DNA of 64,000 nt from an uncultured bacterium (GCA_937871295.1 CALMRE010000219.1:174-64173); one strand, 5' to 3'; positions 936 through 57,035 are shown, counted from the stretch's first letter. Numbers and translations: made by a program. The notes: generated by a model from the sequence alone, not told the origin.

Positions 936-3314
936 ATGCGCGATCCCCTCAAACTCGCCGTGCCGCCGGAGCGGCTCCGGTATTATCCCCGTCTCGAGAA
1001 GTATGAACGGTTGACGGCCCGGCGGATCGGTCCGGGATCCCAGTCCTTCTGTCAGGAGAAAGGCTTCGAGGCGATCGATTTCGGCGTTTCGATAAAGATG
1101 AAGGGCTTCAACATCTACGTCTCGGGCGATCCGGGCACCGGCAAGACATCGAGCGTCAAGAAGTATCTCGAGAAGATGGCGCAGAAAATGCCGGTTCCCG
1201 ACGATATCTGCTACGTCCACAATTTCGATGTCCCCGACGAGCCGCGGCTGATACTTATGCCCCGCGGCACCGGCGAGGTGCTCGTGAAGGATATGGCCGA
1301 TCTGCTCGACTATTTCCAGTACCAGATACCGCGTCAACTCGAGAGCGAGACCTTTGAGATCAAGAAAGGCGAGGTGGTCCGCTGGTATCAGGAGGAGAGC
1401 GAGCGCAACTACCGCGCCATTGAGGGCGAGGCGTCAAAACTCAGTTTCACCATCAAATCCACGCAGGGCGGCTTCGTCATCAATCCCATCGTCGGCGGCG
1501 AGGCGATCGGCAAGGAGGAGTTCGACAAACTCGGCGAGAAGGAAAAGGAAAGCATCCGCACCAACGAAGAAAAACTGCAGGAGAAACTCATCGCCTTCTT
1601 CCACCGCGAACGGGTGCTCGAAAAGGAATATAAGGAGAAGATGACCACCCTGCGCCAGAGCATGGTGCGTCTCATCATCGGCGAACCGCTGGGCGAACTC
1701 CGCAAGAAGTACAAACGCAACGCGGGCCTGGAAGGACATATCAATTCGCTGGAAAAGCACCTGCTCGACAACTTCGACGACTTCTTTACGTGGCGCGACA
1801 TCAATGAGGGGAAGGCCGAAGCGCAGAATCTCGAGATCCCCGATTTCCGCGAGTATAAGGTCAATCTGCTGGTCAACAACAAAAATCTCAAGGGGGCGCC
1901 GGTCATCTACGAGACCAACCCGACCTTCCAGAACATCATGGGCTACTTCGAGTACGAGGAACTGCACAATTCGATCTTCACCGATTTCACCAAGATGAAG
2001 CCGGGCGCGCTCCACTACGCCAACGGCGGCTTCCTCATCGTGCAGGCCAACGATATACTCAAGAACTACTACGCCTGGACCGCGCTCAAGCGTTCGATGC
2101 GCAACCGCGTGCTGAAAATGGACGACATCGATGTCGACTTCCGCTACCGCGTCAACATCTTCCCTAAACCGGAACCGGTCCCGCTGAACGTGAAACTCAT
2201 CATGATCGGCGACGACTACCTCTACCATATGCTCTACACCTACGACGACGATTTCAACCGCATATTCCGCGTCAAGGCCGATTTCGAGTCGACCACCGAC
2301 ATCACCGCGCGCAACACCGACGGGCTGGTCAGGTTCATCGCCCGCATCGTGCAGGAGGACTGCGCGCTCGATTTCGATGTGACCGCGATGCGCCGCATAC
2401 TGCATTATTCCTCGCGGCAGGCGGAGGATCAGAAGAAATACCGCGTCGGCGCCTCCGATCTGGTCGACATCATCCTCGAGAGCGACTTCTGGGCGCGCAA
2501 AGACAAGCGGAAGATCGTCAACGAAGATTCGGTCCGCAGGGCGATCGCGATAAAGGAGAGCCGCCACGCGAAGTTCAAGAAACATTATTATGAATCGATA
2601 GACCGCGACATCATCCTCATCGATGTGGCGGGCGAGAAGGTCGGCATGATAAACGGGCTGGCGGTCTACAGCGTCGGCGACTTCAGTTTCGGCGTCCCCT
2701 CGCGGATAACGGCCAAGGTCTTCGCCGGCCGCGGCGGTATCATCAATGTCGATCGCGAAGTGCGGCTGTCGGGGCGGATACACGACAAGGGGGCACTCAT
2801 CCTCGCCGGCTTCCTGGGCGACATCTTCGCGCAGGACAAATCGTTGTCGCTTTCGGCCTCCATCACCTTCGAACAGAACTACGGCGGGGTGGACGGCGAC
2901 AGCGCCAGTTCCACCGAACTCTACGCGCTCCTTTCGGCGCTCGCCGAGGTGCCCATCAAGCAGTCGATCGCGGTCACCGGTTCGGTCAACCAGATGGGCG
3001 AGATACAGCCCATCGGCGGAGTGAACGAGAAGATAGAGGGCTTTTTCGAGATCTGCAAGATAAAGAAACTCACCGGTGCGCAGGGGGTCATCATCCCGCG
3101 CCAGAACATCGAACACCTGAACCTTTCCGATGAAGTGGTGGAGGCGGTCCGGAAAAAGAAATTCCGCATCTATGCGATAGCCTCCATCATGGAGGGGATA
3201 GAGATACTCACCGGCCTGCCGACCGGCAACCGTCTCAAGAACGGCAAGTTCACCCCCGGCAGTCTGTTCGACAAGGTCGACCAGCGGATCCGTAAACTCA
3301 ACCGCATCAAGTAG
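936..3314 (+). CDS. LonC-like (COG1067) Lon-family serine protease with an AAA-like module
   Basis: Walker A GDPGTGKT. There is a long coiled-coil/helical insertion rich in E/K. Walker B is degenerate (GGFLIVQANDIL, no DE). The C-terminal Lon S16 protease domain has the catalytic Ser in DGDSASS and Lys in VNEKIEGFF. An SD (AAGGAG) lies 6 nt upstream of the ATG at 936; the ORF-track start at 903 was rejected. Confidence 0.8.
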   Translation: MRDPLKLAVPPERLRYYPRLEKYERLTARRIGPGSQSFCQEKGFEAIDFGVSIKMKGFNIYVSGDPGTGKTSSVKKYLEKMAQKMPVPDDICYVHNFDVPDEPRLILMPRGTGEVLVKDMADLLDYFQYQIPRQLESETFEIKKGEVVRWYQEESERNYRAIEGEASKLSFTIKSTQGGFVINPIVGGEAIGKEEFDKLGEKEKESIRTNEEKLQEKLIAFFHRERVLEKEYKEKMTTLRQSMVRLIIGEPLGELRKKYKRNAGLEGHINSLEKHLLDNFDDFFTWRDINEGKAEAQNLEIPDFREYKVNLLVNNKNLKGAPVIYETNPTFQNIMGYFEYEELHNSIFTDFTKMKPGALHYANGGFLIVQANDILKNYYAWTALKRSMRNRVLKMDDIDVDFRYRVNIFPKPEPVPLNVKLIMIGDDYLYHMLYTYDDDFNRIFRVKADFESTTDITARNTDGLVRFIARIVQEDCALDFDVTAMRRILHYSSRQAEDQKKYRVGASDLVDIILESDFWARKDKRKIVNEDSVRRAIAIKESRHAKFKKHYYESIDRDIILIDVAGEKVGMINGLAVYSVGDFSFGVPSRITAKVFAGRGGIINVDREVRLSGRIHDKGALILAGFLGDIFAQDKSLSLSASITFEQNYGGVDGDSASSTELYALLSALAEVPIKQSIAVTGSVNQMGEIQPIGGVNEKIEGFFEICKIKKLTGAQGVIIPRQNIEHLNLSDEVVEAVRKKKFRIYAIASIMEGIEILTGLPTGNRLKNGKFTPGSLFDKVDQRIRKLNRIK

Positions 3315-3326
3315 GGGGATGTCCGC

Positions 3327-3614
3327 ATGCCGATGCTCAAGCTTGAACACCGCACCGAAAAGAACCGCACCGAGATATGGAAGTGGATAGAGGAACATCT
3401 CGAGCGGGAACTGAAATACAAGGTCCCGCGCGAAGAGTTCCAGATCGTCGAGTCGGTGAACGACTGCACCTTCATCATCAAGGGGAAGAATGTCGGCGCA
3501 CAGGTCCATGTGGCCGATAAACTCGTTTCGATCGAACTGAACATCCCGCTCCTGTTCGTGCCGTTCAAACCGATGATCGATGCCGGCGTCCGCGACGCGC
3601 TCAAGGAATTATGA
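3327..3614 (+). CDS. Small conserved protein, weak resemblance to the PHA-system small protein family (TIGR02610-like)
   Basis: 95 aa, no signal peptide. The pattern G..V.A.V.V.D..V.IEL.IPLL..P.K..I.....DALK is reminiscent of the putative polyhydroxyalkanoic acid system protein family. The stop overlaps the next start (ATGA). Confidence 0.35.
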   Translation: MPMLKLEHRTEKNRTEIWKWIEEHLERELKYKVPREEFQIVESVNDCTFIIKGKNVGAQVHVADKLVSIELNIPLLFVPFKPMIDAGVRDALKEL

Positions 3615-4240
3615 CCGACTCCTACCGGACCCTCGTCGGGGTCTGCGGTCCCTATGAACTGAAGGAAAAGGCGTCGCGATTCCTCGCCCACGCCGCACCC
3701 GTCGCGACGCTCGAGGAGGCGGAGCGCTTCGTCGTTTCGCTGAAGAAACGCTATCACGACGCCGCCCATGTCGGCTGGGCCTGCCGGTTCGGTGACGGAG
3801 CCGAAAGTTCATTCCGTTACAGCGACGACGGCGAACCGTCCGGGTCGGCCGGTCTGCCGATACATCAGGAATTGGTCCGTGCGGAACTGTTCAACGTGGT
3901 CTGTGCGGTGGTCCGCTATTTCGGCGGGGTGAAACTGGGGACCGGCGGTCTTGCCCGCGCCTTCGGCGGCGCGGCGCGCGGCCTGCTCGATACCGCCGGG
4001 GTACGCACGGTGCTGGTCACTGAGTTGGTTTCACTGAAAAGCCCCTTCGAACTGGTCGGCACGGTGATGCATCTGGCCGGTCAGTTCCCCGGCGCGGCGA
4101 TAGTGTCGCAGGAGTATGATGAAGAGGGGGTGTGCGTCGAAGTGGCGGTGCCGCGGTCGATGGCCGAACGGTTCCGCGACGCCGTCGTCGAGAGAAGCAG
4201 CGGCCGGATACGCATGGGGTCAGGCAACTTGTGCGCCTGA
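3611..4240 (+). CDS. yigZ: IMPACT family protein (YigZ/UPF0029)
   Basis: Contains the DDGEPSGSAG motif and YFGG(V)KLG, typical of IMPACT/YigZ. It is translationally coupled to the upstream small ORF. Confidence 0.8.
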   Translation: MTDSYRTLVGVCGPYELKEKASRFLAHAAPVATLEEAERFVVSLKKRYHDAAHVGWACRFGDGAESSFRYSDDGEPSGSAGLPIHQELVRAELFNVVCAVVRYFGGVKLGTGGLARAFGGAARGLLDTAGVRTVLVTELVSLKSPFELVGTVMHLAGQFPGAAIVSQEYDEEGVCVEVAVPRSMAERFRDAVVERSSGRIRMGSGNLCA

Positions 4241-4266
4241 CCCCTTTCTGACCCCTTTCCGGCCGG

Positions 4267-5427
4267 TCAGTCGTGCGCCTGGCCCCTTTCCGGGGCGATG
4301 GCCTGACGGATGTCGTCGAAATAGGCCTTGAAGATGCCGGCGATGTCGCCGTCGCTGGTGACGAACAGCACTTCGCGGTTCCGGTAGCAGCCCGCCTTGG
4401 TCCAGTTCATCGAACCGAACACGAGCGCCGCGCCGTCGTCGACGACGGCGAATTTGTGGTGAAAGTTCATCGGCTGGCCCTCGATGTCGATCAACCGGTC
4501 GAAGAGGACCGTTGCCCCCATACTCTCAAGATAGTTCGCCGCCTTCAGATTGACGGCGGGGCCGCCTTCGGCCGTCCAATCGTCCAGAAGCAGCACGGTT
4601 CTGCGGTCTTTCTTCAGCATCTTTTTAAGTCCGGTCATCAGCGGTGTGCCGATGGTCATCGTATACATGGCCACCGACAGTTCTTTCTTTGCGGTGAGCA
4701 GGTACTCCTTGGCAACGCGGCAGCCCTTTCCGGGGAGGAACAGGAGGGCGCCGTATTCCACCGGGCAACCGGTCTCACAGCGCTTCTCCACGCGCATCTC
4801 CTCGAGCGCGGAGAGCTCCGCGGCGAGCAGGGCGGCCAACTTCGGGGCGTCATGGAAGAGTATCGCGGCATTCTTCGACAGCCCCGCCGTGAGATTGCGC
4901 GAGGAGAGCAGCACGCTGCGGTCGTCGGCCACAAGGAACTTCTCGTGCAGTATCCCTTTTGCGGGATGCAGTTCTATCAGCGGGAAGTCCGGTTTTCGCT
5001 CGAAGCCGTTGCGCCCCGCGATGACCGACACCGCAATGCCGCGTGCGGCCGCTTTTTCCAGCGCCGCGACCGGCGGTGAGATGCCGATGGTGTAGGTGAC
5101 GGCGCGGATATTGCGCGTGGCGCGGTCGATGAACGCGACGGCGGCCGGTTCCACCGCATCGTCGAAAAAGATCTCTCCGCCGGCGAATTCGTACTGGTCG
5201 CGGACGGTGGTGGCGGGGGGGGAGGGCGCAGGTTCCCGGAGGTCGGAGCCCTGTTCCTCCGCGTCGATGGCGTCGGTCGTCGCCGGAGGAAGCAGCACCT
5301 CTTCGAGCGGCGGTGCCTCGGGTATCACGAAGAGATAGAGAAGAAAACCCAGCGCGAGCAGAGCGACCGTTTCAAGCAGGGAAACGATGCGCGCCGGCAG
5401 GTTGCGTATCTTTGGTGTCAGCAGCAC
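4267..5427 (-). CDS. Phospholipase D superfamily protein (cardiolipin synthase-like), membrane anchored
   Basis: Two HKD motifs: ILHEKFLVADDRSVLLSSRNL and NFHHKFAVVDDGAALVFGSMNWTKAG. There is an N-terminal TM helix. Confidence 0.75.
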   Translation of the reverse strand: MLLTPKIRNLPARIVSLLETVALLALGFLLYLFVIPEAPPLEEVLLPPATTDAIDAEEQGSDLREPAPSPPATTVRDQYEFAGGEIFFDDAVEPAAVAFIDRATRNIRAVTYTIGISPPVAALEKAAARGIAVSVIAGRNGFERKPDFPLIELHPAKGILHEKFLVADDRSVLLSSRNLTAGLSKNAAILFHDAPKLAALLAAELSALEEMRVEKRCETGCPVEYGALLFLPGKGCRVAKEYLLTAKKELSVAMYTMTIGTPLMTGLKKMLKKDRRTVLLLDDWTAEGGPAVNLKAANYLESMGATVLFDRLIDIEGQPMNFHHKFAVVDDGAALVFGSMNWTKAGCYRNREVLFVTSDGDIAGIFKAYFDDIRQAIAPERGQAHD

Positions 5428-6428
5428 GTGGAGTTAAGACAGTTCTGTATCTTGCGTATCTTTTCCAGCATGCGGGAGAACTGGGAGAAATTGAGCGACT
5501 GGAAGCCGTCGGAAAGGGCGTTGGAGGGGTCGAAATGGATCTCGACCATGAGCCCGTCAGCACCGAGCAGTACCGCCGCCTCGCTGACCGCCGGGATATA
5601 ACGGGCGACACCCACGCCGTGCGACGGGTCGAGCAGTACCGGCAGGTGGGAAAGATCCTTCAGCATCGGGATGGCGGCCATGTTCACCGCGTTGCGGCTC
5701 GCGTCGTCGAAGGAGATGGAGCCGCGTTCGCACAGGATGACATTCTCATTGCCTTCGAGTAGCACATATTCGACCGAGAGCAGGAAGTCCTCTATGCGGG
5801 CCGAAGGCGCCCGCTTGATAAGAAGAGGTTTGCCGCTTTTGCCGAGTTCCCGCAACAGGGTGAAGTTGTACATGTTCCGCGCGCCGACCTGTATGATGTC
5901 GACATGTTCGAGGAATAGGTCAAGGCTCCGCAGGTCGACGATCTCGCTCACGCTCTTCATGCCGTAGCGGCGGGCCACCGAACTCAGGATGCGCAGGCCC
6001 TCGTCGCCGAGCCCCTGAAAACTGTAGGGCGAGGAGCGCATCTTGTAGGTGCCGCCCCGCAGGAGTTTGATGCCGAGGCTCGAAAGGAACGCGGCGATGC
6101 GGTCGAACGATTCCTCGCTTTCGACACTGCAGGGACCCGCGATGAAGCGGAAATCGTCGCCGATGCGCACGCCGTCGCCGAGATCGACGATGGTTCTCGG
6201 GCGATATTCCTTGGTCACCATGTAGTAGGGACTGGAGATGCGGAGCACCTTGTCGACCCCGTCGATCGAACGGAACCGGCTGATATCGCTTGCGGTAAGA
6301 TCGCCGAGGACCGGGATGACGGTGTATTTGACCCCTTCAAGCACATTATACTGGAAGCCGCCGGCCATCAGACGGCTGCGCACATCCTCCAGCACCTCTT
6401 TTCGGTCGCGTTTAAGAACGATGATCAT
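5418..6428 (-). CDS. 3-deoxy-7-phosphoheptulonate (DAHP) synthase, class I-beta with N-terminal ACT/ferredoxin-like regulatory domain
   Basis: DAHPS/KDO8PS family core motifs are present: LDPSHGVG, KRAPS, GPCSVES. The N-terminal extension resembles Thermotoga-type regulated DAHPS. The gene overlaps the downstream PLD gene by 10 nt. Confidence 0.8.
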   Translation of the reverse strand: MIIVLKRDRKEVLEDVRSRLMAGGFQYNVLEGVKYTVIPVLGDLTASDISRFRSIDGVDKVLRISSPYYMVTKEYRPRTIVDLGDGVRIGDDFRFIAGPCSVESEESFDRIAAFLSSLGIKLLRGGTYKMRSSPYSFQGLGDEGLRILSSVARRYGMKSVSEIVDLRSLDLFLEHVDIIQVGARNMYNFTLLRELGKSGKPLLIKRAPSARIEDFLLSVEYVLLEGNENVILCERGSISFDDASRNAVNMAAIPMLKDLSHLPVLLDPSHGVGVARYIPAVSEAAVLLGADGLMVEIHFDPSNALSDGFQSLNFSQFSRMLEKIRKIQNCLNSTCC

Positions 6429-17849: not shown

Positions 17850-18806
17850 CTATTTCGACAAGTTGTGATCGATAGTCGCCGCGATATCCCGCAGTCGTTT
17901 GTTCTGTGTCATGGCTTCATCCAAGCGCCCCGTCAGCTTGGAAACTGCCTGTCCCTTCATATCGAAACGCGCGCCGATCTCCGCCAAGGAGCCCGCTCCG
18001 TGCCGCCGCAGCGCCCACAGGTACCACTTGAACGAATCGTCGCCGCGCCGTTTCTCGATGGGCGCGCCCTCTTTGAGCTTCAGCGCCTTGCGCACCGCCG
18101 CCGCTACCGCTTCTTCGCTTCCGGCCAGCAGTCGCCGCGCCTCGGGCATATGCGCCACCGGCGTTTCCCGCAGGCGCACCTTCATCTCGTCCACGAAATC
18201 TTCGCCGCCGAGCAGCGAGTTCGCGCCGTAGATGCTTGCGGCGTCGGGTTTGCGCCTCCATACCTCGTCGATGATGGCGAGGTAGTTCTTCCGGCCGCCG
18301 CAGAGTTTCATGACCTCGTCGGTGGTCACCGTGAGCGTCAGTTCGTTCTTCTTCGCGGGCGGGTTCTTGCCGATGTAGTGCGCCATGCTCGACCACCGCC
18401 ACGCTTCGGGGCTTTTCACCAGCCCGGCGCGCACCGGATTGAGGTGGATGTAGGCCGACACCGTCGCGAGGTAGCGTTCCTCCTCGACGAGCACCGACTT
18501 GAAGCGGCCTTGGAACAGCGATCCGACGAGTTGATGCCGCGCCCGGTACCACGATGCGTAACTTGAATTGAGAGTATGCATCGCCCGCGAGAGGTTGGCG
18601 TCGGGGGTGCCGACGAGCAGGTGGTAATGGTTGTCCATCAGGCAGTAGCCGTGCACGACGAGGTTGAACCGTATCTGTACGACGGCGAGGCGCCCGAGGA
18701 ACTCTTCGCGGTCCTTGTCGTCGGTGAAGATCGCTTCGCGGCGGTGTCCGCGGTTGATGACATGGTAGAGCGCGTTCTCATACGCGAGGCGCAATGGGCG
18801 GGCCAT
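17850..18806 (-). CDS. IS200/RAYT-like HUH (Y1) transposase fused to a DnaA C-terminal-like HTH domain
   Basis: HUH motif HGYCLMDNHYHLL. The IS200-like C-terminal helix YIHLNPVRAGLV is present. The C-terminal roughly 120 aa is helical and DnaA-domain-IV-like. Confidence 0.7.
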   Translation of the reverse strand: MARPLRLAYENALYHVINRGHRREAIFTDDKDREEFLGRLAVVQIRFNLVVHGYCLMDNHYHLLVGTPDANLSRAMHTLNSSYASWYRARHQLVGSLFQGRFKSVLVEEERYLATVSAYIHLNPVRAGLVKSPEAWRWSSMAHYIGKNPPAKKNELTLTVTTDEVMKLCGGRKNYLAIIDEVWRRKPDAASIYGANSLLGGEDFVDEMKVRLRETPVAHMPEARRLLAGSEEAVAAAVRKALKLKEGAPIEKRRGDDSFKWYLWALRRHGAGSLAEIGARFDMKGQAVSKLTGRLDEAMTQNKRLRDIAATIDHNLSK

Positions 18807-18862
18807 GGATTCCTCCGTCGGTCAGTACGGCGGAGAGATATCAGAACGATCAACTCAAGTCA

Positions 18863-18895
18863 AGAAATGTCTTATGTCGAGGACTGACCCCTCTG
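18863..18895. repeat. Right terminal inverted repeat of the RAYT-like element
   Basis: 33 bp. It contains an in-frame ATG (18874) for the downstream znuA-like ORF. Confidence 0.6.
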
Positions 18896-18957
18896 CATTG
18901 ACTATCCTTCTTTCCTCTGCTATTGTGGCGGGCGTATGTGGTAATGGTGAGGACAAC

Positions 18958-19881
18958 TTGCAGAAAATTGTCTGGATAACGATCCCTCTTCTGATCGTCG
19001 GTGTCATCGGTTGGCTCATCTTCGTCAATGCCGACCGGGCGAAACCCGCCCGCGCTGCGGCGACGGTCGCTCCGCTGCAGGTGCACGAGGGGCCAACGCC
19101 CGTTTTCGTCTCCATTCCGCCGCTGAAATATATCGCCGAACGGATCGGCGGCGACCGGGTCACGGTCACCGCGTTGGTCCGCCCGGGAGCAGATCCGCAC
19201 ACTTTCGAGCCGTTGCCCGATCAGATGGCGGGGTTGTCGACGGCGAAATTCTTTTTCCTTGCCGGCGATCCTTCGGAACTGGCGTGGCGCGACAAGGTGC
19301 GCGGTTCGTACCCCGATCTTACTTTCATAGAGACCGGCGCCGCCGTCATCAAGCGGCCGGCCGATGGAGAAGAGGAGCACCACGGCGGCGTCGATCCGCA
19401 CATCTGGCTGGCGCCCGAGCTGTTGCGCATTCAGGCCCGTTCGATGGCGGCGGTCTTCATGACGGCCGACAAGCCGAATGCGGCCTATTACAAGGAACGG
19501 CTCGATGTCTTTACCGTCGCGATGGATGCGCTCGACGGCCGGATAAAGGAGTTGCTCGCGCCGTACAAGGGGCGCAGTTTCATCGTGTTCCATCCCTCGT
19601 GGGGCTATTTCGCCGACGCCTACGGCCTGAAACAGGTGCCGATCGAGATGGCGGGCAAGGGGCCGGGGGCGCGTCATCTGGCGGCGGTGACCGACATCGT
19701 GCGGCGTGAAAAGGTTTCCGCGATCTTCGCCGCCCCGCAGTTCCCGGTAGGCGAGGCGCAGTCGGTCGCCGACGCGACCGGGGCGAAGGTCGTTACGATC
19801 GATCCGCTCGCCGAGGATGTCGAAAAGAATCTTTCGGCGGTCGCCGACGCGCTTCTTGCGTCGTTCGGAGGGAAGAAGTGA
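18958..19881 (+). CDS. znuA: Metal (Zn/Mn) ABC transporter substrate-binding protein, ZnuA/TroA family
   Basis: Signal anchor IVWITIPLLIVGVIGWLIF; TroA-like His/Asp metal ligands (DPHIW, HPSWGYF). A TTG start at 18958 with SD GGTGAGGA is proposed. An alternative ATG at 18874 lies inside the right inverted repeat. Confidence 0.6.
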   Translation: MQKIVWITIPLLIVGVIGWLIFVNADRAKPARAAATVAPLQVHEGPTPVFVSIPPLKYIAERIGGDRVTVTALVRPGADPHTFEPLPDQMAGLSTAKFFFLAGDPSELAWRDKVRGSYPDLTFIETGAAVIKRPADGEEEHHGGVDPHIWLAPELLRIQARSMAAVFMTADKPNAAYYKERLDVFTVAMDALDGRIKELLAPYKGRSFIVFHPSWGYFADAYGLKQVPIEMAGKGPGARHLAAVTDIVRREKVSAIFAAPQFPVGEAQSVADATGAKVVTIDPLAEDVEKNLSAVADALLASFGGKK

Positions 19882-20606
19882 CCATCGTCTCTTTTGACAG
19901 GGTCTCCTTCGCCTATGCGGCGTGGCCGGTACTCGAAGAGGTCTCCTTCGATATCTATGAGCGCGAGTTCTTCGCCATCATCGGGCCGAACGGCGGCGGC
20001 AAGACGACCATCCTGAAACTCATGCTCGGCCTCCTCAAGCCCCGGCAGGGGCGGGTGACGGTCCTCGGGGCGCCCGCCGGGAAGAACGGCGGCCGGATCA
20101 GCTATGTGCCGCAGTCGGCGCGGATGGAGCTCGATTTCCCCATCACGGTCGAGGAGACGGTGATGCTCGGGCGGCTCGGGCCGCGTTCGTTCACCCCGTT
20201 CTTTTCCGAAAAGGACCGGGCCGCGGCGCGCGAGTCGATGGCGGCGGTCGATATCCTGCCGCTCAAGGACCGGCTCTTCGACGAACTGTCGGGCGGCCAG
20301 AAACAGCGGACCCTCATCGCCCGGTCGCTGGTGTCGGCGCCCGAGCTGCTGCTCCTCGACGAGCCGGTGTCGAGCGTCGACAGTACCGTGGAGCAGGATA
20401 TCTATGCGCTTCTCAAGGAACTGAATAAAAAGATGGCCATCGTCATGGTGTCGCACGATCTCGGCTTCGTGTCGTCGTATGTCAGACGGATCGCCTGCGT
20501 CAACCGGCTGGTGTCGGTAAGCGATGCGGCCGAGGTGACGCAGTGCGGGATAGACGAGAAGTATCACAGTCACATGCACCGTGTCGATCATCACTGCGGG
20601 TTGTAA
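19878..20606 (+). CDS. znuC: Metal ABC transporter ATP-binding protein
   Basis: Walker A GPNGGGKTT, signature LSGGQKQR, Walker B LLLLDEP. Confidence 0.85.
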   Translation: MTIVSFDRVSFAYAAWPVLEEVSFDIYEREFFAIIGPNGGGKTTILKLMLGLLKPRQGRVTVLGAPAGKNGGRISYVPQSARMELDFPITVEETVMLGRLGPRSFTPFFSEKDRAAARESMAAVDILPLKDRLFDELSGGQKQRTLIARSLVSAPELLLLDEPVSSVDSTVEQDIYALLKELNKKMAIVMVSHDLGFVSSYVRRIACVNRLVSVSDAAEVTQCGIDEKYHSHMHRVDHHCGL

Positions 20607-20608
20607 CG

Positions 20609-21433
20609 ATGGGCGGATTTGTCACGGCGCTACAACAGTATCCCTTCCTGCAGAACGCCCTTATCGCGGGACTGCTGGCGGCGGTCGCCTGCGGTCTTGC
20701 CGGGACCTTCGTGGTGCTCAAAAAGATATCGTTCGTCACCGGCGGCATATCGCACGCGGTGCTGGGCGGTGTCGGGGTCGCCGTGTTCCTCGGCTATTCC
20801 CCCTTCGCCGGAGCGCTGGTCTGCGCACTGCTGTTCACGGTGGTGCTGGGGCTCGTCAACAAGCGGGCGCGTCAGCATGAGGATACTCTTATCGGCGCGC
20901 TCTGGGCGGTCGGGATGTCGGTCGGCATCCTGTTCCTGTACCTCACCCCGGGGCATCAGGCCGATCTGATGGGGTATCTGTTCGGGAGCATCCTGATGGT
21001 GCCGCGCGAGTCGCTCTACCGGCTGGCGGTGCTCGACGCGGTGGTGCTGGTCACTGTATTCGTCCTTTTCCGGCAGTTCATCGCCATATCGTTCGACGAG
21101 GAACATGCCCGGGTGCGTGGCCTGCCGCGGACGGCGCTCTACATCATGCTGCTCGGGGTGGTGGCGCTGACGGTGGTGGTGCTGATGCAGGCGGTCGGCC
21201 TCATACTCGTCATCGCGCTTCTCACCCTTCCCGCCGCCACCGCGGCGCTTTTTAGCCGCTCTCCGGCCGCCATCGTCGGCTGGGCGACCCTCATCGGCGC
21301 GGTATCGACCTTCGCCGGCATTTTCGGGTCATTCTCCCTCGATATCCCGGCCGGTCCGGCGATGGTGCTCACCGCCGGCGCGTTCTATCTCGCCGGTCTG
21401 GTTCTGCGCGCCGTAAGCGGGAGGAGCGCATGA
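20609..21433 (+). CDS. znuB: Metal ABC transporter permease
   Basis: Eight TM helices; ABC-3 family. Start chosen at MGGFVTALQQ. Confidence 0.85.
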   Translation: MGGFVTALQQYPFLQNALIAGLLAAVACGLAGTFVVLKKISFVTGGISHAVLGGVGVAVFLGYSPFAGALVCALLFTVVLGLVNKRARQHEDTLIGALWAVGMSVGILFLYLTPGHQADLMGYLFGSILMVPRESLYRLAVLDAVVLVTVFVLFRQFIAISFDEEHARVRGLPRTALYIMLLGVVALTVVVLMQAVGLILVIALLTLPAATAALFSRSPAAIVGWATLIGAVSTFAGIFGSFSLDIPAGPAMVLTAGAFYLAGLVLRAVSGRSA

Positions 21434-22221
21434 ACACCTCATCGTGGCTGGAGAAACTCGGCGGCGCGGTGCTCGATAACTGGCACGAACTGCGGCAACT
21501 GCTCGGGTTCGCCTACACCGTGTTCCGCCGCCTGTTCGCCCCCTCCAGCTATCGGCCGCTGACGGTCGATATCCTGACCACGCAGATATACTTCACCGCG
21601 GTCCAGATACTCGGCTTCTTCATCGTGGTATCGGTCCTGTTCGGGTCGCTCTTCATCGGGATGACCCTCTTCGTCATCAAGGAGATCGGCCTGACGAGCT
21701 ATATCGGCCAGTTCATCGCCGGGGTGGTGGTGCTGGAGATGGCGCCGCTGGTGACGGTGCTTCTCATCGCCCTGCGGAGCGGATCGGCCATCAACGCCGA
21801 GATGGCGGTCATGAAGGTGAACCGCGAACTTGACGCCCTCACCGCCTTCAACATCGACATCGCCCGCTACCTGTTCCTGCCGCGCATCATCGCGGTGATG
21901 GTGAGCGTCGTACTGCTCAGTTCGCTCTTCGCCATCATCGTGACGCTCTCCGGACTTATCTTCTCCGCCCTCATCTTCGGCATGGGGTTCAACGCCTACG
22001 CCGATCTCATCGCCAAGGCGATAGAGTACAAGGATTTCCTCATCCTGATGGTGAAAAGCGCCGCCTTCGGGTTCTTCATCACCTTCATCCCGCTCTACTA
22101 CGGGTCGCGCGCCGGCTATCAGCTGACGGCGGTACCGGTGTCGGTCCTGCGCGGGATGGTCAATGTCTTCATAGCGATAGTCGTCATCGAGGTGCTGTCA
22201 TTAGTTGCCCGGTTTCTGTAA
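21430..22221 (+). CDS. mlaE: MlaE/YrbE-family ABC transporter permease
   Basis: Five to six TM helices and the ELDALTAFNID (EIDAL-like) motif typical of MlaE. Confidence 0.8.
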   Translation: MNTSSWLEKLGGAVLDNWHELRQLLGFAYTVFRRLFAPSSYRPLTVDILTTQIYFTAVQILGFFIVVSVLFGSLFIGMTLFVIKEIGLTSYIGQFIAGVVVLEMAPLVTVLLIALRSGSAINAEMAVMKVNRELDALTAFNIDIARYLFLPRIIAVMVSVVLLSSLFAIIVTLSGLIFSALIFGMGFNAYADLIAKAIEYKDFLILMVKSAAFGFFITFIPLYYGSRAGYQLTAVPVSVLRGMVNVFIAIVVIEVLSLVARFL

Positions 22222-22223
22222 GA

Positions 22224-22679
22224 CTCTTCCGCTCGGAAGATGAACTGGCCGCCGCGCTTGCCGCGCTGCGCGTCGAGACGGGGCCGCGCTACGCCCCCGT
22301 TTCGGCCGAAATTCCGCTTCTTTCCAACCTGTCGGTGTTCCAGAACATCGCCCTCATCCGGCAGTACCACGAGCGGCTGACGGCCGAGGATTCGCACCGC
22401 GATACCACGGCGCTCCTCGAACGGTTCGATCTGTGTCATCTGGCGGCGAAACGCAGTTATGAACTGAACGACCGCGAGCTGTTCTTCGTGAAACTGCTGC
22501 GCGCCTCCCAGCATGCGAACGCCGCCATCGTCATCGACCGTCCCTTCGCGCAGGTCGAGAACATGCACACCCTTTCACCGATACGGAAAGCGTTGGAACT
22601 CCTTGACTTCCCCGGCATCGAAGGTATCATTCTCGGGTACGAATGGAACAGGGGGCGCTACGAGGCCGATGGCGAATAG
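22224..22679 (+). pseudogene. Degenerate ABC ATPase remnant (MlaF position) lacking Walker A, with a mutated signature and Walker B
   Basis: The frame is open from the mlaE stop but has no ATG/TTG; only GTG 22335 is in frame. The translation shows the Q-loop region LLSNLSVFQNIAL. The signature is LNDRE instead of LSGGQ. Walker B is IVIDRPF instead of hhhhDEP. H-loop region is GYEWN. About 150 aa, with no P-loop anywhere. Confidence 0.45.
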
Positions 22680-23613
22680 GAGCATACAGTACAAGGTCGG
22701 ACTGTTCATCGTCACGACCATCGTGCTGGTCATACTCGCGGCGCTGTTCATCGCCTATAAAAAGGACCTGTTCGCCGATCTGGCGATGTACCGGCTCCAA
22801 TCGGAATCGGGCGAGGGGCTGACGCAGGGGATGCCGGTCCTCTTCTCCGGTTTCGAGATCGGCAAGGTGAAAGACCTCGAATTGTCGGACAAGGGACAGG
22901 TGGTCATCACCATCACCGTGCCGCGCAAACATGTCCGCTGGATACGCGAGGAGAGTACCTTCACGCTCGAAAAACCGCTGGTCGGTACGCCGCGTATCGT
23001 GGTGCGGACCGAGAACCCCGAGGGAAAGGAACTTTCCTACAGCAAGGTCGTCCCGATGAAGACGATAGACGACATCAACGAGGTCATCAAGAAGGCTCAG
23101 CCGCTGGTCGAACGGATACAGTCGGTTGCCGACAACATCGACCGGATGACCAATGCCGACAGCGAGCTCAACAAGATCATCGCCGACACCCGCAAGATGA
23201 CCAAGATGCTCTCGGAGAAGAAGAGCCTGCTTGAGATGGCGACGGGCGACAAGAAGGGGCAGGAAACGCTCATGAAGACGCTTGAACAGGTCGCCGCCAT
23301 CACCGAAACGGTCGACGGCACCATGAAGCGGATAGACGGGATGGTGGCGAAGGCCGACGAGTCGGTGCTGGGCGATAAAGGTTCGATAGCGATAGTCAAC
23401 AATATCCTTTCCGACATCGAGGGTAAGTTCAAGCGGCTCGACACCCTCATCGACAACGCCATCACGATGAGCGCCGACCTGCAGGGGACCACGCAGGACA
23501 TCAACCTCGTCCGCAAAGAGGTCGAGGAGACGATATCGTCGGTGAACAAGCTTATTCAGGATGTCCGCAACAGCCTGCCCTTCGAGCAGAAGAAGGAGAT
23601 AAAACTGCCGTGA
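22669..23613 (+). CDS. mlaD: MCE-domain (MlaD-like) protein with long C-terminal coiled coil
   Basis: N-terminal TM VGLFIVTTIVLVILAALFIA; an MCE beta-barrel region; about 200 aa of helical repeats. Confidence 0.7.
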   Translation: MANRSIQYKVGLFIVTTIVLVILAALFIAYKKDLFADLAMYRLQSESGEGLTQGMPVLFSGFEIGKVKDLELSDKGQVVITITVPRKHVRWIREESTFTLEKPLVGTPRIVVRTENPEGKELSYSKVVPMKTIDDINEVIKKAQPLVERIQSVADNIDRMTNADSELNKIIADTRKMTKMLSEKKSLLEMATGDKKGQETLMKTLEQVAAITETVDGTMKRIDGMVAKADESVLGDKGSIAIVNNILSDIEGKFKRLDTLIDNAITMSADLQGTTQDINLVRKEVEETISSVNKLIQDVRNSLPFEQKKEIKLP

Positions 23614-24260
23614 GAAAAGCATTCTTCTGCATCGTCATCGCGCTGGCCGCCTGTTCGTCGCAGCCCGCTCCGGCATGGCAGAGCGCCGCCTACACACAGC
23701 TCGCCAACTATACCGAAAGCTATCTCGCGGGCGAAGAGAAGCTGGCCGGCATCCATTTCGATAAAGCACTCGAACATATCTCGAAAACCGGAGATCCGGC
23801 GCTCGTGGGGCGGGCATGGCTCACCCGCTGTGCGCTGGAGACCGCCGCCCTCATCGATGTCCCCTGCGACACGGCGAAGGGATACGGCGGTGATCCGGCC
23901 AACGACAGCTACCGCGCGATGCTCGAAGGGACCGCCGTGAAGACCGATGCGCTTCCGGAACAGTACCGTGATCTCATGGAGGCGCTCGCCAAACGCTCGG
24001 TCAAAGAGGTGAACGGCGCTCTTTCCGATATAGAGGACCCGATCTCGCGCCTCATCGGCGCCGGGGTGGCGGTCAAGCGGGGGACCTTTGACACCGGCAC
24101 GCTCGAACTGGCGGCCGACTGCGCCTCTAAGAACGGCTGGAAGACGCCGCTGACGGCCTATCTGCTCCGCCTCAAGGCGGCCTACGGCGCGGCCGGACAG
24201 GGCGATAAGGCGGCTGCTGTCGACAACCGGCTTGAGATACTTGCCGGCGACAAGAAATAG
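23610..24260 (+). CDS. Lipoprotein, possibly an MCE/ABC-transport auxiliary component
   Basis: Lipobox LAACS. It sits immediately after the MCE gene with an overlapping stop/start, as DUF330-type auxiliary lipoproteins do. Confidence 0.45.
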   Translation: MRKAFFCIVIALAACSSQPAPAWQSAAYTQLANYTESYLAGEEKLAGIHFDKALEHISKTGDPALVGRAWLTRCALETAALIDVPCDTAKGYGGDPANDSYRAMLEGTAVKTDALPEQYRDLMEALAKRSVKEVNGALSDIEDPISRLIGAGVAVKRGTFDTGTLELAADCASKNGWKTPLTAYLLRLKAAYGAAGQGDKAAAVDNRLEILAGDKK

Positions 24261-24348
24261 TCTTTTCCGAAAAAGCGCAAAGGTTCTTGATTGTTCAAGG
24301 AACATGATATATAATGCATCGTTTTTCTGCCTGTTAGGGAGGTGCGCG

Positions 24349-26094
24349 ATGAGAGGGTTCAGTTGGATGGTGCTTCTGTTCTGCGCCGTCGTGTTCACGG
24401 TCGCCTGCGAGGAGACCAAGAAGAATATCGTCGATAAGGATGGGTCCGACAGCGACGAGATGCTCGGCGACAGCGATGAGATATCAGCGGCGGATGTCGA
24501 TTTCGCGGCGACCTGCGGCAACGGGATGGTCGACGGCGGCGAGCTCTGTGACGATAACACCGAGTTCTGCACCACGATAGACCCGGTCCTCTATTCGGGC
24601 GGCAAGGCGAAATGCCTCGACAATTGCGCCGGCTGGGACACCGCCACCTGCGATGAGGTCCCGCATGAATGCGGCAACACCGTCAAGGAAGGGCCCGAGG
24701 CGTGTGACGGCGATACGAAGAACTGCGTCGATATCGATGCGAACAAATACAGCGGCGGCAAGGCGAAATGTCTCGCCGACTGCACCGGTTACGATACCGC
24801 CACCTGCGATGAGAAACAGCCCGAATGCGGCAACAATGTCATCGAACAGGGCGAGCTCTGCGACGGCGGCACCAAGACCTGCGTTTCGATAAACGTCAAC
24901 TTCATCGGCGGTGTCGCCTCCTGCGGGTCCGACTGCGCCGCGTGGGATACCTCCACCTGCATCACTGCCGAGATGTGCGGCAACGATGTGCTCGACAACG
25001 GCGAGACCTGCGACAAAGGGACGAACAGCCTCACCAAGGTCAAGAACTGCGTCGAGATAGACCCGTACGCCTATTCGGGCGGCAAGGCGAAGTGCAACAC
25101 GACCTGCGACGGCTGGGATACCGCCACCTGCGAGGAACTGCCGAGCGACAACGATACCGTCGATAATGACACGGTCGATTACGACTATCCCAACGACATC
25201 GACAACGAACTGCCCGATTACGATACCGACACCGACACCGCCTGCACCAATGATTGCGTTACGCAGGGTGAGGAGCGGTGCTTCAACGAAACGGTCCAGC
25301 GCTGCGTGCAGGGCTGGGACGGCTGCAACGATTGGTCGAACATAGAATACTGCTATCAGAACACCCCCGTGCAAACCTGCGAGGAATGGTTGGGCGACGC
25401 CTACTGCGTCAGCACCTGTGAGAGCGAATGCACCAACGGTACCTATCAGTGCGATCCCCAGAACGCCGAGGATATTCAGAGTTGTGCATATAACAGCGAC
25501 GACGGTTGCTATTACTGGGAATTCTACTACGACTGCGTTACCGGTTACGGCGCGGGGTACGTGTGCGCCGATTCCGGGTCGAATTGCGACTACGAATCGA
25601 CCGCGCAGACCGACACCATCGGTTCGAACGCCGCTTCTTACACCGGTGGCGACCGCCTGAAGGGGAACTATTTTTCCTGCACCTCTTCGCGCACTTTGAC
25701 CGATATCAGCAGTTACATGGCCTTCACCGGCGGCCTCGACATCACCTATGTCGTCTACTATGCGTCGACCCAGACCGGCACCTACAGCCTTCTCTCCCAG
25801 AAAACGGTCAACCAGTACTCGAGCGCCGGGACCGCCGCATGGTACGCTTCCGGGGCCATGTCGGTAAGCCTGACCAGCGGCTACTATTACTTCATCGGCG
25901 TTTTCTTCGGCACGACCGATGATGTTTCCTATCCCGATCCGACCTACTACTATGCGACGACGCTCAACAGCACCCAGCCGGTGTTCGGAACGCACCTCGG
26001 CGGCGGCGAATCGGCGACCTTCGCGAGTCTCCCTTCCAGCGTTACGACCATCGACAATAGTTACGGCTATTACATGCAGATAACCACCGAGTAG
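24349..26094 (+). CDS. Secreted lipoprotein with four Myxococcus-type cysteine-rich repeats, an acidic D/N/T linker and a Cys-rich C-terminal domain
   Basis: Lipobox FTVAC. Four units of about 50 aa of the form CGN...E(L/A)CD(G/D)...C..ID...YSGGKAKC...C.G.DTATC(D)E. SD AGGGAGG upstream of ATG 24349. Confidence 0.65.
   Translation: MRGFSWMVLLFCAVVFTVACEETKKNIVDKDGSDSDEMLGDSDEISAADVDFAATCGNGMVDGGELCDDNTEFCTTIDPVLYSGGKAKCLDNCAGWDTATCDEVPHECGNTVKEGPEACDGDTKNCVDIDANKYSGGKAKCLADCTGYDTATCDEKQPECGNNVIEQGELCDGGTKTCVSINVNFIGGVASCGSDCAAWDTSTCITAEMCGNDVLDNGETCDKGTNSLTKVKNCVEIDPYAYSGGKAKCNTTCDGWDTATCEELPSDNDTVDNDTVDYDYPNDIDNELPDYDTDTDTACTNDCVTQGEERCFNETVQRCVQGWDGCNDWSNIEYCYQNTPVQTCEEWLGDAYCVSTCESECTNGTYQCDPQNAEDIQSCAYNSDDGCYYWEFYYDCVTGYGAGYVCADSGSNCDYESTAQTDTIGSNAASYTGGDRLKGNYFSCTSSRTLTDISSYMAFTGGLDITYVVYYASTQTGTYSLLSQKTVNQYSSAGTAAWYASGAMSVSLTSGYYYFIGVFFGTTDDVSYPDPTYYYATTLNSTQPVFGTHLGGGESATFASLPSSVTTIDNSYGYYMQITTE
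24517..25140 (+). repeat. Four tandem repeats of about 150 bp encoding the Cys-rich modules
   Basis: DNA-level repetition tgcggcaac...ggcggcaaggcgaaatg...gataccgccacctgcgatgag is visible four times. Confidence 0.6.
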
Positions 26095-56894: not shown

Positions 56895-57035
56895 GCTTTC
56901 GGATATTCTGGCTTGCGGTCAACCGGAGCGCCGCCCCTTCCCGCCGTACGGCAGTGGGCTATTGCGGCGTCCGTCGCGCTTACAGCTGCGGGACAGCACC
57001 GGATTCACACCGGATTTCCCCGTCTGCGGACACAG
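56895..57035 (-). promoter_or_regulatory. Cobalamin (AdoCbl) riboswitch in the btuB 5' leader, with upstream TTGACA-17-TACTAA promoter (about 57040-57072)
   Basis: The minus-strand RNA reads GGGGAAAUCCGGUGUGAAUCCGGUGCUGUCCCGCAGCUGUAAGCG...AGCCCACUGCCGUACGGCGGGAAGG. This closely parallels the E. coli btuB leader (GGGAAUCCAGUGCGAAUCUGGAGCUGACGCGCAGCGGUAAGG...CACUGCC...GGGAAG) and the B12-box consensus GCCACUG. Confidence 0.7.

Follow-up and report, generated by a model that had tools for sequence, protein, structure and literature searches.

Permeases of the ATP-binding cassette (ABC) type are almost by definition driven by cassettes that hydrolyze ATP. The ATPase subunit of the Mla lipid transporters, MlaF, is a protein of ~265 aa with a Walker A motif, a Q-loop, an LSGGQ signature, a Walker B Glu, an H-loop His and a C-terminal extension. 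Here we describe a gene, called X in the following, which takes the place of mlaF between a gene for an MlaE permease and a gene for an MCE-domain protein in DNA from an uncultured bacterium (GCA_937871295.1 CALMRE010000219.1:174-64173; 64,000 nt, referred to as the window, with all coordinates counted from its first letter). The closest described systems are MlaFEDB of E. coli, A. baumannii and P. aeruginosa and the three-gene MlaEFD of Veillonella, with which the locus shares the MlaE permease, the downstream MCE protein, overlapping genes and the order of permease, a gene of nucleotide-binding-domain (NBD) type and MCE gene. Unlike MlaF, however, X is a protein of 159 aa with none of the motifs listed above, and unlike MlaFEDB the cassette is without a STAS/MlaB partner, has an MCE protein of the long type and is completed by a novel lipoprotein.

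Two further groups of MCE systems are relevant for comparison. LetAB (YebST) and PqiABC are MCE conduits for lipids in the cell envelope that have no dedicated ABC ATPase. The cassette is similar to PqiABC in the long C-terminal region of its MCE protein, as found in PqiB, and in the lipoprotein gene which comes next, as PqiC does after PqiB; faint Helical_needle matches were also detected in homologues of the MCE protein. On the other hand, LetA and PqiA are not permeases of the ABC type, whereas the cassette combines a true MlaE with what appears to be the relic of a motor. The mycobacterial Mce1-4 systems, with their shared ATPase MceG and the inhibitor Mce1N, resemble the cassette in that the operon holding the permease and MCE genes includes no working ATPase gene, but they have no NBD-like gene and their MceG is canonical, while in the present case the apparent NBD-derived relic is encoded within the operon. 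Mce1N has been described as a membrane protein and is not reported as NBD-derived (PMC13492129). A phylogenomic survey of Mla systems makes use of MlaDEF and MlaDE cluster arrangements and flags uncertain MlaF annotations (PMC10665443). A full-text literature search, the coverage of which was incomplete, returned no description of a protein like X, and priority is not asserted. In summary, the window encodes both an MlaE/YrbE permease and an MCE-domain protein, and its architecture is that of an Mla/MCE transporter, but X falls short of an ABC ATPase in Walker A, LSGGQ, catalytic Glu, Q-loop Gln, H-loop His and the curated score threshold of the family.

The homology of X to ABC ATPases spans the part from the Q-loop region to the H-loop only. 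X matches the NCBIfam LptB profile with an E-value of 7.3e-10 over profile positions 71-186 of 239 (38.5 bits vs a cutoff of 240), and a profile built from the X family aligns its positions 9-129 to residues 77-196 of LptB in the PDB (E=2.3e-9). Both matches agree with an earlier note on this DNA, which had recognized an ATPase fragment, beginning at the Q-loop region and without Walker A, as the only coding potential between mlaE and the MCE gene. The note's assignment of LNDRE to the signature LSGGQ and of IVIDRPF to Walker B, with the catalytic Glu replaced by Arg, is likewise reproduced by the profile alignment to LptB. The Asp of Walker B is kept in X of the window, the Q-loop Gln column is occupied by Ala and the H-loop His is replaced by Tyr; both the Q-loop column and the signature segment (columns 89-93 in 84 representatives) are variable across the family. 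No Walker A motif (GxxGxGK[ST]) is present in any of the six frames of 21000-24300, which is also the outcome of the test for a hidden Walker A segment that the earlier note had set for itself, and none was seen in the short family members displayed. The X frame is open from 21834, but upstream of 22200 it reads as an Arg/His-rich off-frame translation unlike the N-terminus of an ABC ATPase. Judged by these alignments, X has none of the residues needed for the binding or hydrolysis of ATP.

The AlphaFold2 model of X, calculated from an alignment of 27 sequences, is compact, with a mean pLDDT of 89.7 and a pTM of 0.86. All of the 50 matches listed in a Foldseek comparison against the PDB are ABC ATPase domains (LptB, LolD, MlaF, and FtsE), with TM-scores of 0.59-0.70 by query. 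Over ~126-130 aligned columns the TM-score is 0.65-0.70 by query and ~0.45 by target. As the latter value is relative to full domains, X corresponds to roughly half an ABC domain. The fold shown by the model is that of the Q-loop, helical-subdomain, Walker-B-strand and H-loop-strand part of an ABC NBD. A comparison of the X-family profile with the canonical MlaF of Smithella placed the Q-loop, signature and Walker B in the expected register, but with a probability of 12% and for a single sequence it adds no support.

A search of 5.8 billion proteins identified 26 homologues of X with 37-94% identity, all 108-156 aa in length. In an alignment of X homologues at 32-93% identity (A1), 18 residues are invariant, located in PLLSN..NIALI.QYH, KR...L.....F...L.RA and D.PF; within the motif PLLSNLSVFQNIAL these are P, L, N, N, I, and L. 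A locus scan with one genome per species (GTDB representatives) matched 110 loci, of which 80 were fetched and inspected, and counts out of 80 in the following refer to these. The order mlaE, X, MCE, lipoprotein, all in the same orientation, is found in 80 of 80 loci as far as the contigs reach. An MCE homologue follows X in 78 of them (in L069, one of the two exceptions, the contig ends just past X) and a lipoprotein homologue is present in 76. The comparison of orthologous loci, which the earlier note had proposed, returned the same X in the relatives and a full ATPase in none of the 80 cassettes. The seven close relatives are metagenome-assembled genomes labelled Spirochaetales or "bacterium", and nearly all others carry the labels Syntrophales, Smithellaceae or Deltaproteobacteria. 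With its start taken at the conserved codon described below, X has 157-167 aa and no internal stops in each of the 79 relatives with the whole gene on the contig. Its dN/dS outside the overlap with mlaE is 0.12 for the pair with L001 and 0.11 for that with L002; the median of 227 pairs is 0.20. X is thereby shown to be a conserved protein-coding gene under purifying selection, which is kept in at least 110 bacterial species.

The first ATG, GTG or TTG in the X frame of the window is the GTG at 22335, and the earlier note was right that no canonical start follows the mlaE stop. The puzzle it saw in this appears to be solved by a Shine-Dalgarno sequence and an ATT codon inside mlaE, and the fragment of ~150 aa it had placed after the mlaE stop is to be corrected to 159 codons from the ATT at 22200. 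In every locus X is read in the -1 frame of mlaE, with an overlap at the mlaE stop of the form NTAA or NTGA. The codon overlapping this stop was considered as a general start and ruled out, as it is TTA, GTA, ATA or CTA in 50 of the 80 classifiable sequences, and is without a Shine-Dalgarno sequence. Eight codons upstream of it, an AT(T/C) codon is invariant (ATT in 67 and ATC in 13 of the 80), and the arrangement GAGGTG-N5-AT(T/C) occurs in all 80 sequences, 77 times at the position seen in the window and three times 15 nt further upstream, in frame. The third positions of the mlaE codons GAG, GTG, CTG, and TCA carry 1.45-2.0 bits, compared with 0.07-0.54 bits further upstream, and this conservation of synonymous positions points to selection on the nucleotides themselves. 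Of the 80 sequences, 31 have an X frame that extends no more than three codons upstream of the ATT/ATC, and none of these codons is able to initiate. From this pattern we strongly infer that X is translated from the conserved AUU/AUC with a GAGGUG Shine-Dalgarno sequence, both located inside the last codons of mlaE. The choice of ATT may be forced by the overlapping MlaE codons, where NTG would mean Cys or Trp in MlaE.

A conserved non-NUG (AUU) start with a normal Shine-Dalgarno sequence is known from infC of E. coli, and in these two properties X is similar to the AUU-initiated infC and pcnB. It is different from both in that start and Shine-Dalgarno sequence lie within the upstream coding sequence, in that ATC alternates with ATT, and in that no autoregulatory logic is known. 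Remote subfamilies start X at ATG, which forms an ATGA overlap with the mlaE stop in three loci (L082-L084). The annotated X homologues (P0001-P0026 and P0027-P0173) have at least six different N-termini, with lengths including 133, 144, 126, and 153 aa, and many database entries begin at profile position 28 or 41. This inconsistency is likely due to gene callers being unable to place a start at the conserved ATT/ATC.

At E<=1e-10, a profile search of 1.84 billion cluster representatives gave 186 clusters, a number that rises to 1939 at E<=1e-3; almost all of the best 150 have lengths of 80-177 aa. For four remote members (P0155, P0156, P0076, and P0131, 21-30% identical to X) the contig extends into the neighbouring genes, and each of them is located between MlaE and MlaD/MCE genes. 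In an alignment of 84 distant representatives (A2) the mean column identity is 24%, and the residues kept in at least 90% of sequences are P39, L40, L44, N49, R101, A102, and P115. The first four form the motif PL..L....N just past the Q-loop position, R101 (81/84) and A102 (80/84) sit in the helix after the signature, and P115 is located after Walker B. The column of the Walker B Asp, in contrast, is Asp in 40 of the 84. Glu is absent from the six commonest residues in the column of the catalytic Glu, which are R (41), Q (8), T (7), S (7), M (5), and K (3), and His from those in the H-loop column (Y 31, L 20, F 8, T 8, I 5, and Q 3). These conserved and variable columns indicate that selection kept the fold core and the surface just past the Q-loop, and not the nucleotide site. 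The nearest full-length relative of the X family (P0168, L081 285-1091, E=2.4e-13) is a full-length ABC ATPase beside an MCE gene on a contig of 2.4 kb. With Walker A and B intact, a degenerate signature (LNVNA) and Asp as the Q-loop residue, it is a possible evolutionary intermediate toward X. Another family member, P0045 (232 aa), resembles X linked to a C-terminal portion of the MCE protein, and may be either an artefact of assembly or frameshift or a real fusion.

A complete canonical paralogous operon is present near the cassette in three Smithella loci (2668-6226, minus strand, in L024; also in L033 and L042). It encodes a STAS-MlaE fusion (381 aa), an ABC ATPase, MlaD and an ABC_trans_aux lipoprotein, in this order in L024, where the slot of X is that of the ABC ATPase. 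By this synteny, the L024 operon shows what appears to be the ancestral gene order of the cassette. We consider it probable, though with some reserve, that X is translated into a functional, nucleotide-free protein derived from the ATPase subunit (MlaF type) of an MCE lipid transporter.

The likely site of action of X can be proposed from the conservation of the two proteins. The segment RSGSAINAEMAVMKVNRELDAL, which we take to be the coupling-helix region of MlaE, is the most conserved stretch across the 80 cassette MlaE sequences, with a mean of 3.85 bits. The segment past the Q-loop that matches PLLSNLSVFQNIAL, including F90 of LptB, presumably lines the groove for the coupling helix of the permease in real ABC ATPases. 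The presumed contact motifs of MlaE and X are nearly invariant in the 80 pairs. Since the best-conserved segments of X and MlaE are thus the presumed groove and the coupling helix, X would dock as MlaF does, binding the coupling helices on the cytoplasmic side of the MlaE dimer, with one copy for each protomer and through the same groove as real MlaF. It may serve as a structural cap that completes and stabilizes an MlaE2-MCE6-lipoprotein assembly. The suggestion of the earlier note that a pseudo-ATPase subunit is retained for assembly is favoured by the conserved groove and coupling-helix segments, while the docking it implies is our reading of the sequences.

More speculatively, the movement of lipid through this assembly would not be powered by ATP hydrolysis at the X-filled site, because X would fill the docking site and appears unable to bind ATP. 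The assembly could then be a passive or otherwise-energized conduit, as has been proposed for the ATPase-less LetAB and PqiABC. An ATP-independent conduit is plausible because LetAB and PqiABC are without an ATPase and because spontaneous transfer between MlaC and MlaFEDB has been reported. The latter was found for E. coli MlaFEDB, where phospholipid moves to and from MlaC without ATP (bioRxiv 10.1101/2021.05.25.445566). We tentatively propose, as a serious possibility that falls somewhat short of probable, that the cassette is a natural motor-less ABC transporter, in which an MlaE permease and an MCE conduit move lipid without ATP hydrolysis and the ATPase has been permanently swapped for a relic that caps the coupling helices. 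Jointly with this, and just as tentatively, the cassette arrangement would be widespread in Syntrophales and in other lineages known mostly from metagenomes.

Several observations weigh against a transporter without a motor. Pfam ABC_tran (PF00005) gives no match to X even at E<=1, and the residue-level mapping of X onto ABC motifs consists of profile alignments at 20-25% identity. AUU and AUC starts are normally weak and would suit a sub-stoichiometric regulator no less than a structural subunit present at 1:1. The search for MlaF covered 64 kb of this genome and +-10 kb in the relatives, and a canonical MlaF elsewhere in the genome is possible. In L024, L033, and L042 the complete canonical operon lies 4-5 kb from the cassette. 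Mycobacteria offer a precedent, in that their YrbE/Mce operons have no ATPase of their own and share MceG (PMC13492129). Such considerations lead to the alternative, one of the three options named in the earlier note, that a canonical MlaF-type ATPase encoded elsewhere powers the transporter, with X as a modulator, as a placeholder or competitive inhibitor at the docking site, or as one half of an MlaF-X heterodimer. For an occupier of the docking site, Mce1N is again a precedent, as it binds YrbE1B at a site that clashes with the recruitment of MceG (PMC13492129), and the weak ATT/ATC start would suit a regulator of low abundance. We nevertheless regard this alternative as unlikely, although it retains real weight. 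An MlaF-type ATPase was found within 10 kb in only three of the 80 loci, always within the complete canonical operon of Smithella; this operon is the only nearby candidate source of an ATPase acting in trans, and its ATPase has its own permease. Any ABC ATPase with Walker A is present within +-10 kb in 10 of the 80 loci, never inside the cassette, while the other 70 have none. A second ABC ATPase, MlaE or MCE gene was sought across the 64-kb window, and only znuC was found. By keeping the docking motif, X would in our reading compete with a real ATPase for the site. An MlaF-X heterodimer would have no complete ATP site, since X is without a P-loop and its signature is degenerate. The ATG start of the remote subfamilies, with the ATGA overlap in three of them, is the usual arrangement for equimolar subunits. 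Two neighbouring ATPases were also considered as the motor and ruled out: znuC, because the znu genes adjoin the cassette only in the window and in its two closest relatives, L001 and L002, among the inspected loci, and the downstream ABC ATPase of L006 and L007, which belongs to an unrelated ABC-2 membrane/ABC_transp_aux-type operon following panB.

The remaining explanations concern X itself. It is conceivable, but improbable, that X no longer acts on MlaE, having become a small protein of the cytoplasm with a different function, for instance as an adaptor or sensor, and is merely retained in the operon. The loss of all catalytic motifs and the far divergence of the family, as seen in the mean column identity of A2, would suit such a role, but X stays strictly between the MlaE and MCE genes even at 21-30% identity, the genes overlap, and the conserved residues are the permease-facing ones of real ABC ATPases and those of the fold core, with no new surface among them. 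A full ATPase might instead be restored by a programmed frameshift near the end of mlaE, fusing permease and X, or by a separate Walker-A half complementing X. The constant -1 frame of X with its NTAA/NTGA overlap at the stop speaks for a frameshift, and internal Shine-Dalgarno sequences can stimulate frameshifting, as in dnaX and prfB. This explanation is nonetheless highly improbable: the overlap differs in sequence between lineages and has no shared slippery heptamer, the spacing from the Shine-Dalgarno sequence to the ATT is that of initiation, and remote subfamilies use an ordinary ATG. The fused protein would still be without a P-loop, Walker A being found in no frame, and complementation could not restore catalysis, as the signature, catalytic Glu and H-loop His are lost too; the AlphaFold model of X is moreover compact alone. 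The lack of a canonical start, the missing ABC_tran match and the degeneration of all motifs could finally be taken as signs of a decaying mlaF pseudogene in an effectively non-coding region, in line with the terms "remnant" and "decaying operon" of the earlier note. This is refuted by the intact X frame of constant length in 79 relatives, the same cassette in 80 loci, a dN/dS of 0.11-0.12 to the nearest relatives and 0.1-0.2 overall, the 18 invariant residues, the conserved Shine-Dalgarno sequence and start, and the confidently predicted fold.

In the window, X is part of a row of seven plus-strand genes (18805-24260) chained by overlapping stops and starts, consisting of znuA-znuC-znuB, mlaE, X, MCE, and lipoprotein (Table 1). 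The znu genes are regarded as outside the conserved unit because of their adjacency in only three of the loci. MlaE of the window aligns over its full length to the solved MlaE structures of E. coli and P. aeruginosa. The MCE protein has a hydrophobic, anchor-like N-terminal stretch, one MCE domain and a long, helical-looking C-terminal region, and its matches in the PDB are LetB/YebT and Mce1. For the cassette lipoprotein no sequence match was found in Pfam, NCBIfam or the PDB.

Table 1. Features of the gene row around X in the window.
Feature	Position	Strand	Remarks
znuA	18805-19881	+	Pfam ZnuA
znuC	19878-20606	+	Pfam ABC_tran; true ABC ATPase with Walker A and LSGGQ
znuB	ends 21433	+	Pfam ABC-3; stop overlaps mlaE ATG (ATGA, 21430-21433)
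mlaE-like permease gene, 263 aa	21430-22221	+	Pfam MlaE 9.3e-47
Predicted Shine-Dalgarno sequence of X, GAGGTG	22189-22194	+	within mlaE codons GAG GTG
Predicted start codon of X, ATT	22200-22202	+	5 nt past the Shine-Dalgarno sequence, 28 nt inside mlaE
Gene X, 159 codons and stop	22200-22679	+	P-loop-less, probably derived from an ABC NBD; slot of mlaF in canonical operons
PLLSNLSVFQNIAL, best-conserved motif of X	22314-22355	+	aligns just past the Q-loop; LptB S88-L99 region including F90
LNDRE, at the ABC signature position	22464-22478	+	HMM alignment to LptB LSGGE
IVIDRPF, at the Walker B position	22527-22547	+	under LptB ILLDEPF; catalytic Glu replaced by Arg
Tyr codon at the H-loop His position	22638-22640	+	LptB ITDHN vs X ilDYe in the profile alignment
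Stop codon of X	22677-22679	+	end of the frame
MCE-domain gene, 314 aa	22669-23613	+	Pfam MlaD 1.6e-8; NCBIfam Mce family 1.4e-10; first 11 nt shared with the end of X
Lipoprotein gene, 216 aa, lipobox LAAC	23610-24260	+	fourth cassette gene; start overlaps the MCE stop (GTGA)

The gene row is flanked by two genes of other kinds. Directly upstream of znuA and divergent from it, a protein of 317 aa with an IS200-like Y1 transposase domain (Pfam Y1_Tnp 1.4e-14, residues 9-120) is encoded on the minus strand at 17850-18806. Directly after the cassette (24349-26094, plus strand) follows a gene for a protein of ~580 aa with a hydrophobic, signal-like N-terminal segment, several Cys-rich repeats of the form CGN..E.GE.CD....C..ID...YSGGKAKC...C.GWDTATC and a Cys/Tyr-rich C-terminal half, which has no Pfam match at 1e-4. 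The only Rfam family represented in the window is a cobalamin riboswitch (RF00174) at 56901-57021 on the minus strand, with 83 bits vs a gathering score of 31.5.

ABC domains which have lost catalytic residues and are kept as structural or regulatory parts are known from CFTR NBD1, TAP1, and TM287/288. These keep the P-loop, bind ATP and have a catalytic partner site, whereas in X the entire P-loop segment is gone, as are the signature, the catalytic base and the switch His. What X has in common with an MlaF/LptB-type domain is ancestry and part of the fold. The family appears to retain the permease, the MCE protein and the docking half of the motor, and to have discarded everything that touches ATP. 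As X scores lower than the curated ABC thresholds, surveys of MlaF by synteny or ABC profiles will probably overlook or misclassify these systems. Gene callers, in turn, misplace the start of X. The direction and the energy requirement of MCE/Mla lipid transport are debated (bioRxiv 10.1101/2021.05.25.445566). If the cassette is indeed a transporter that has given up its motor, it would be a natural experiment separating the structural from the energetic contribution of the ATPase, and would provide a compact, testable system for passive lipid movement through an MlaE-MCE conduit.

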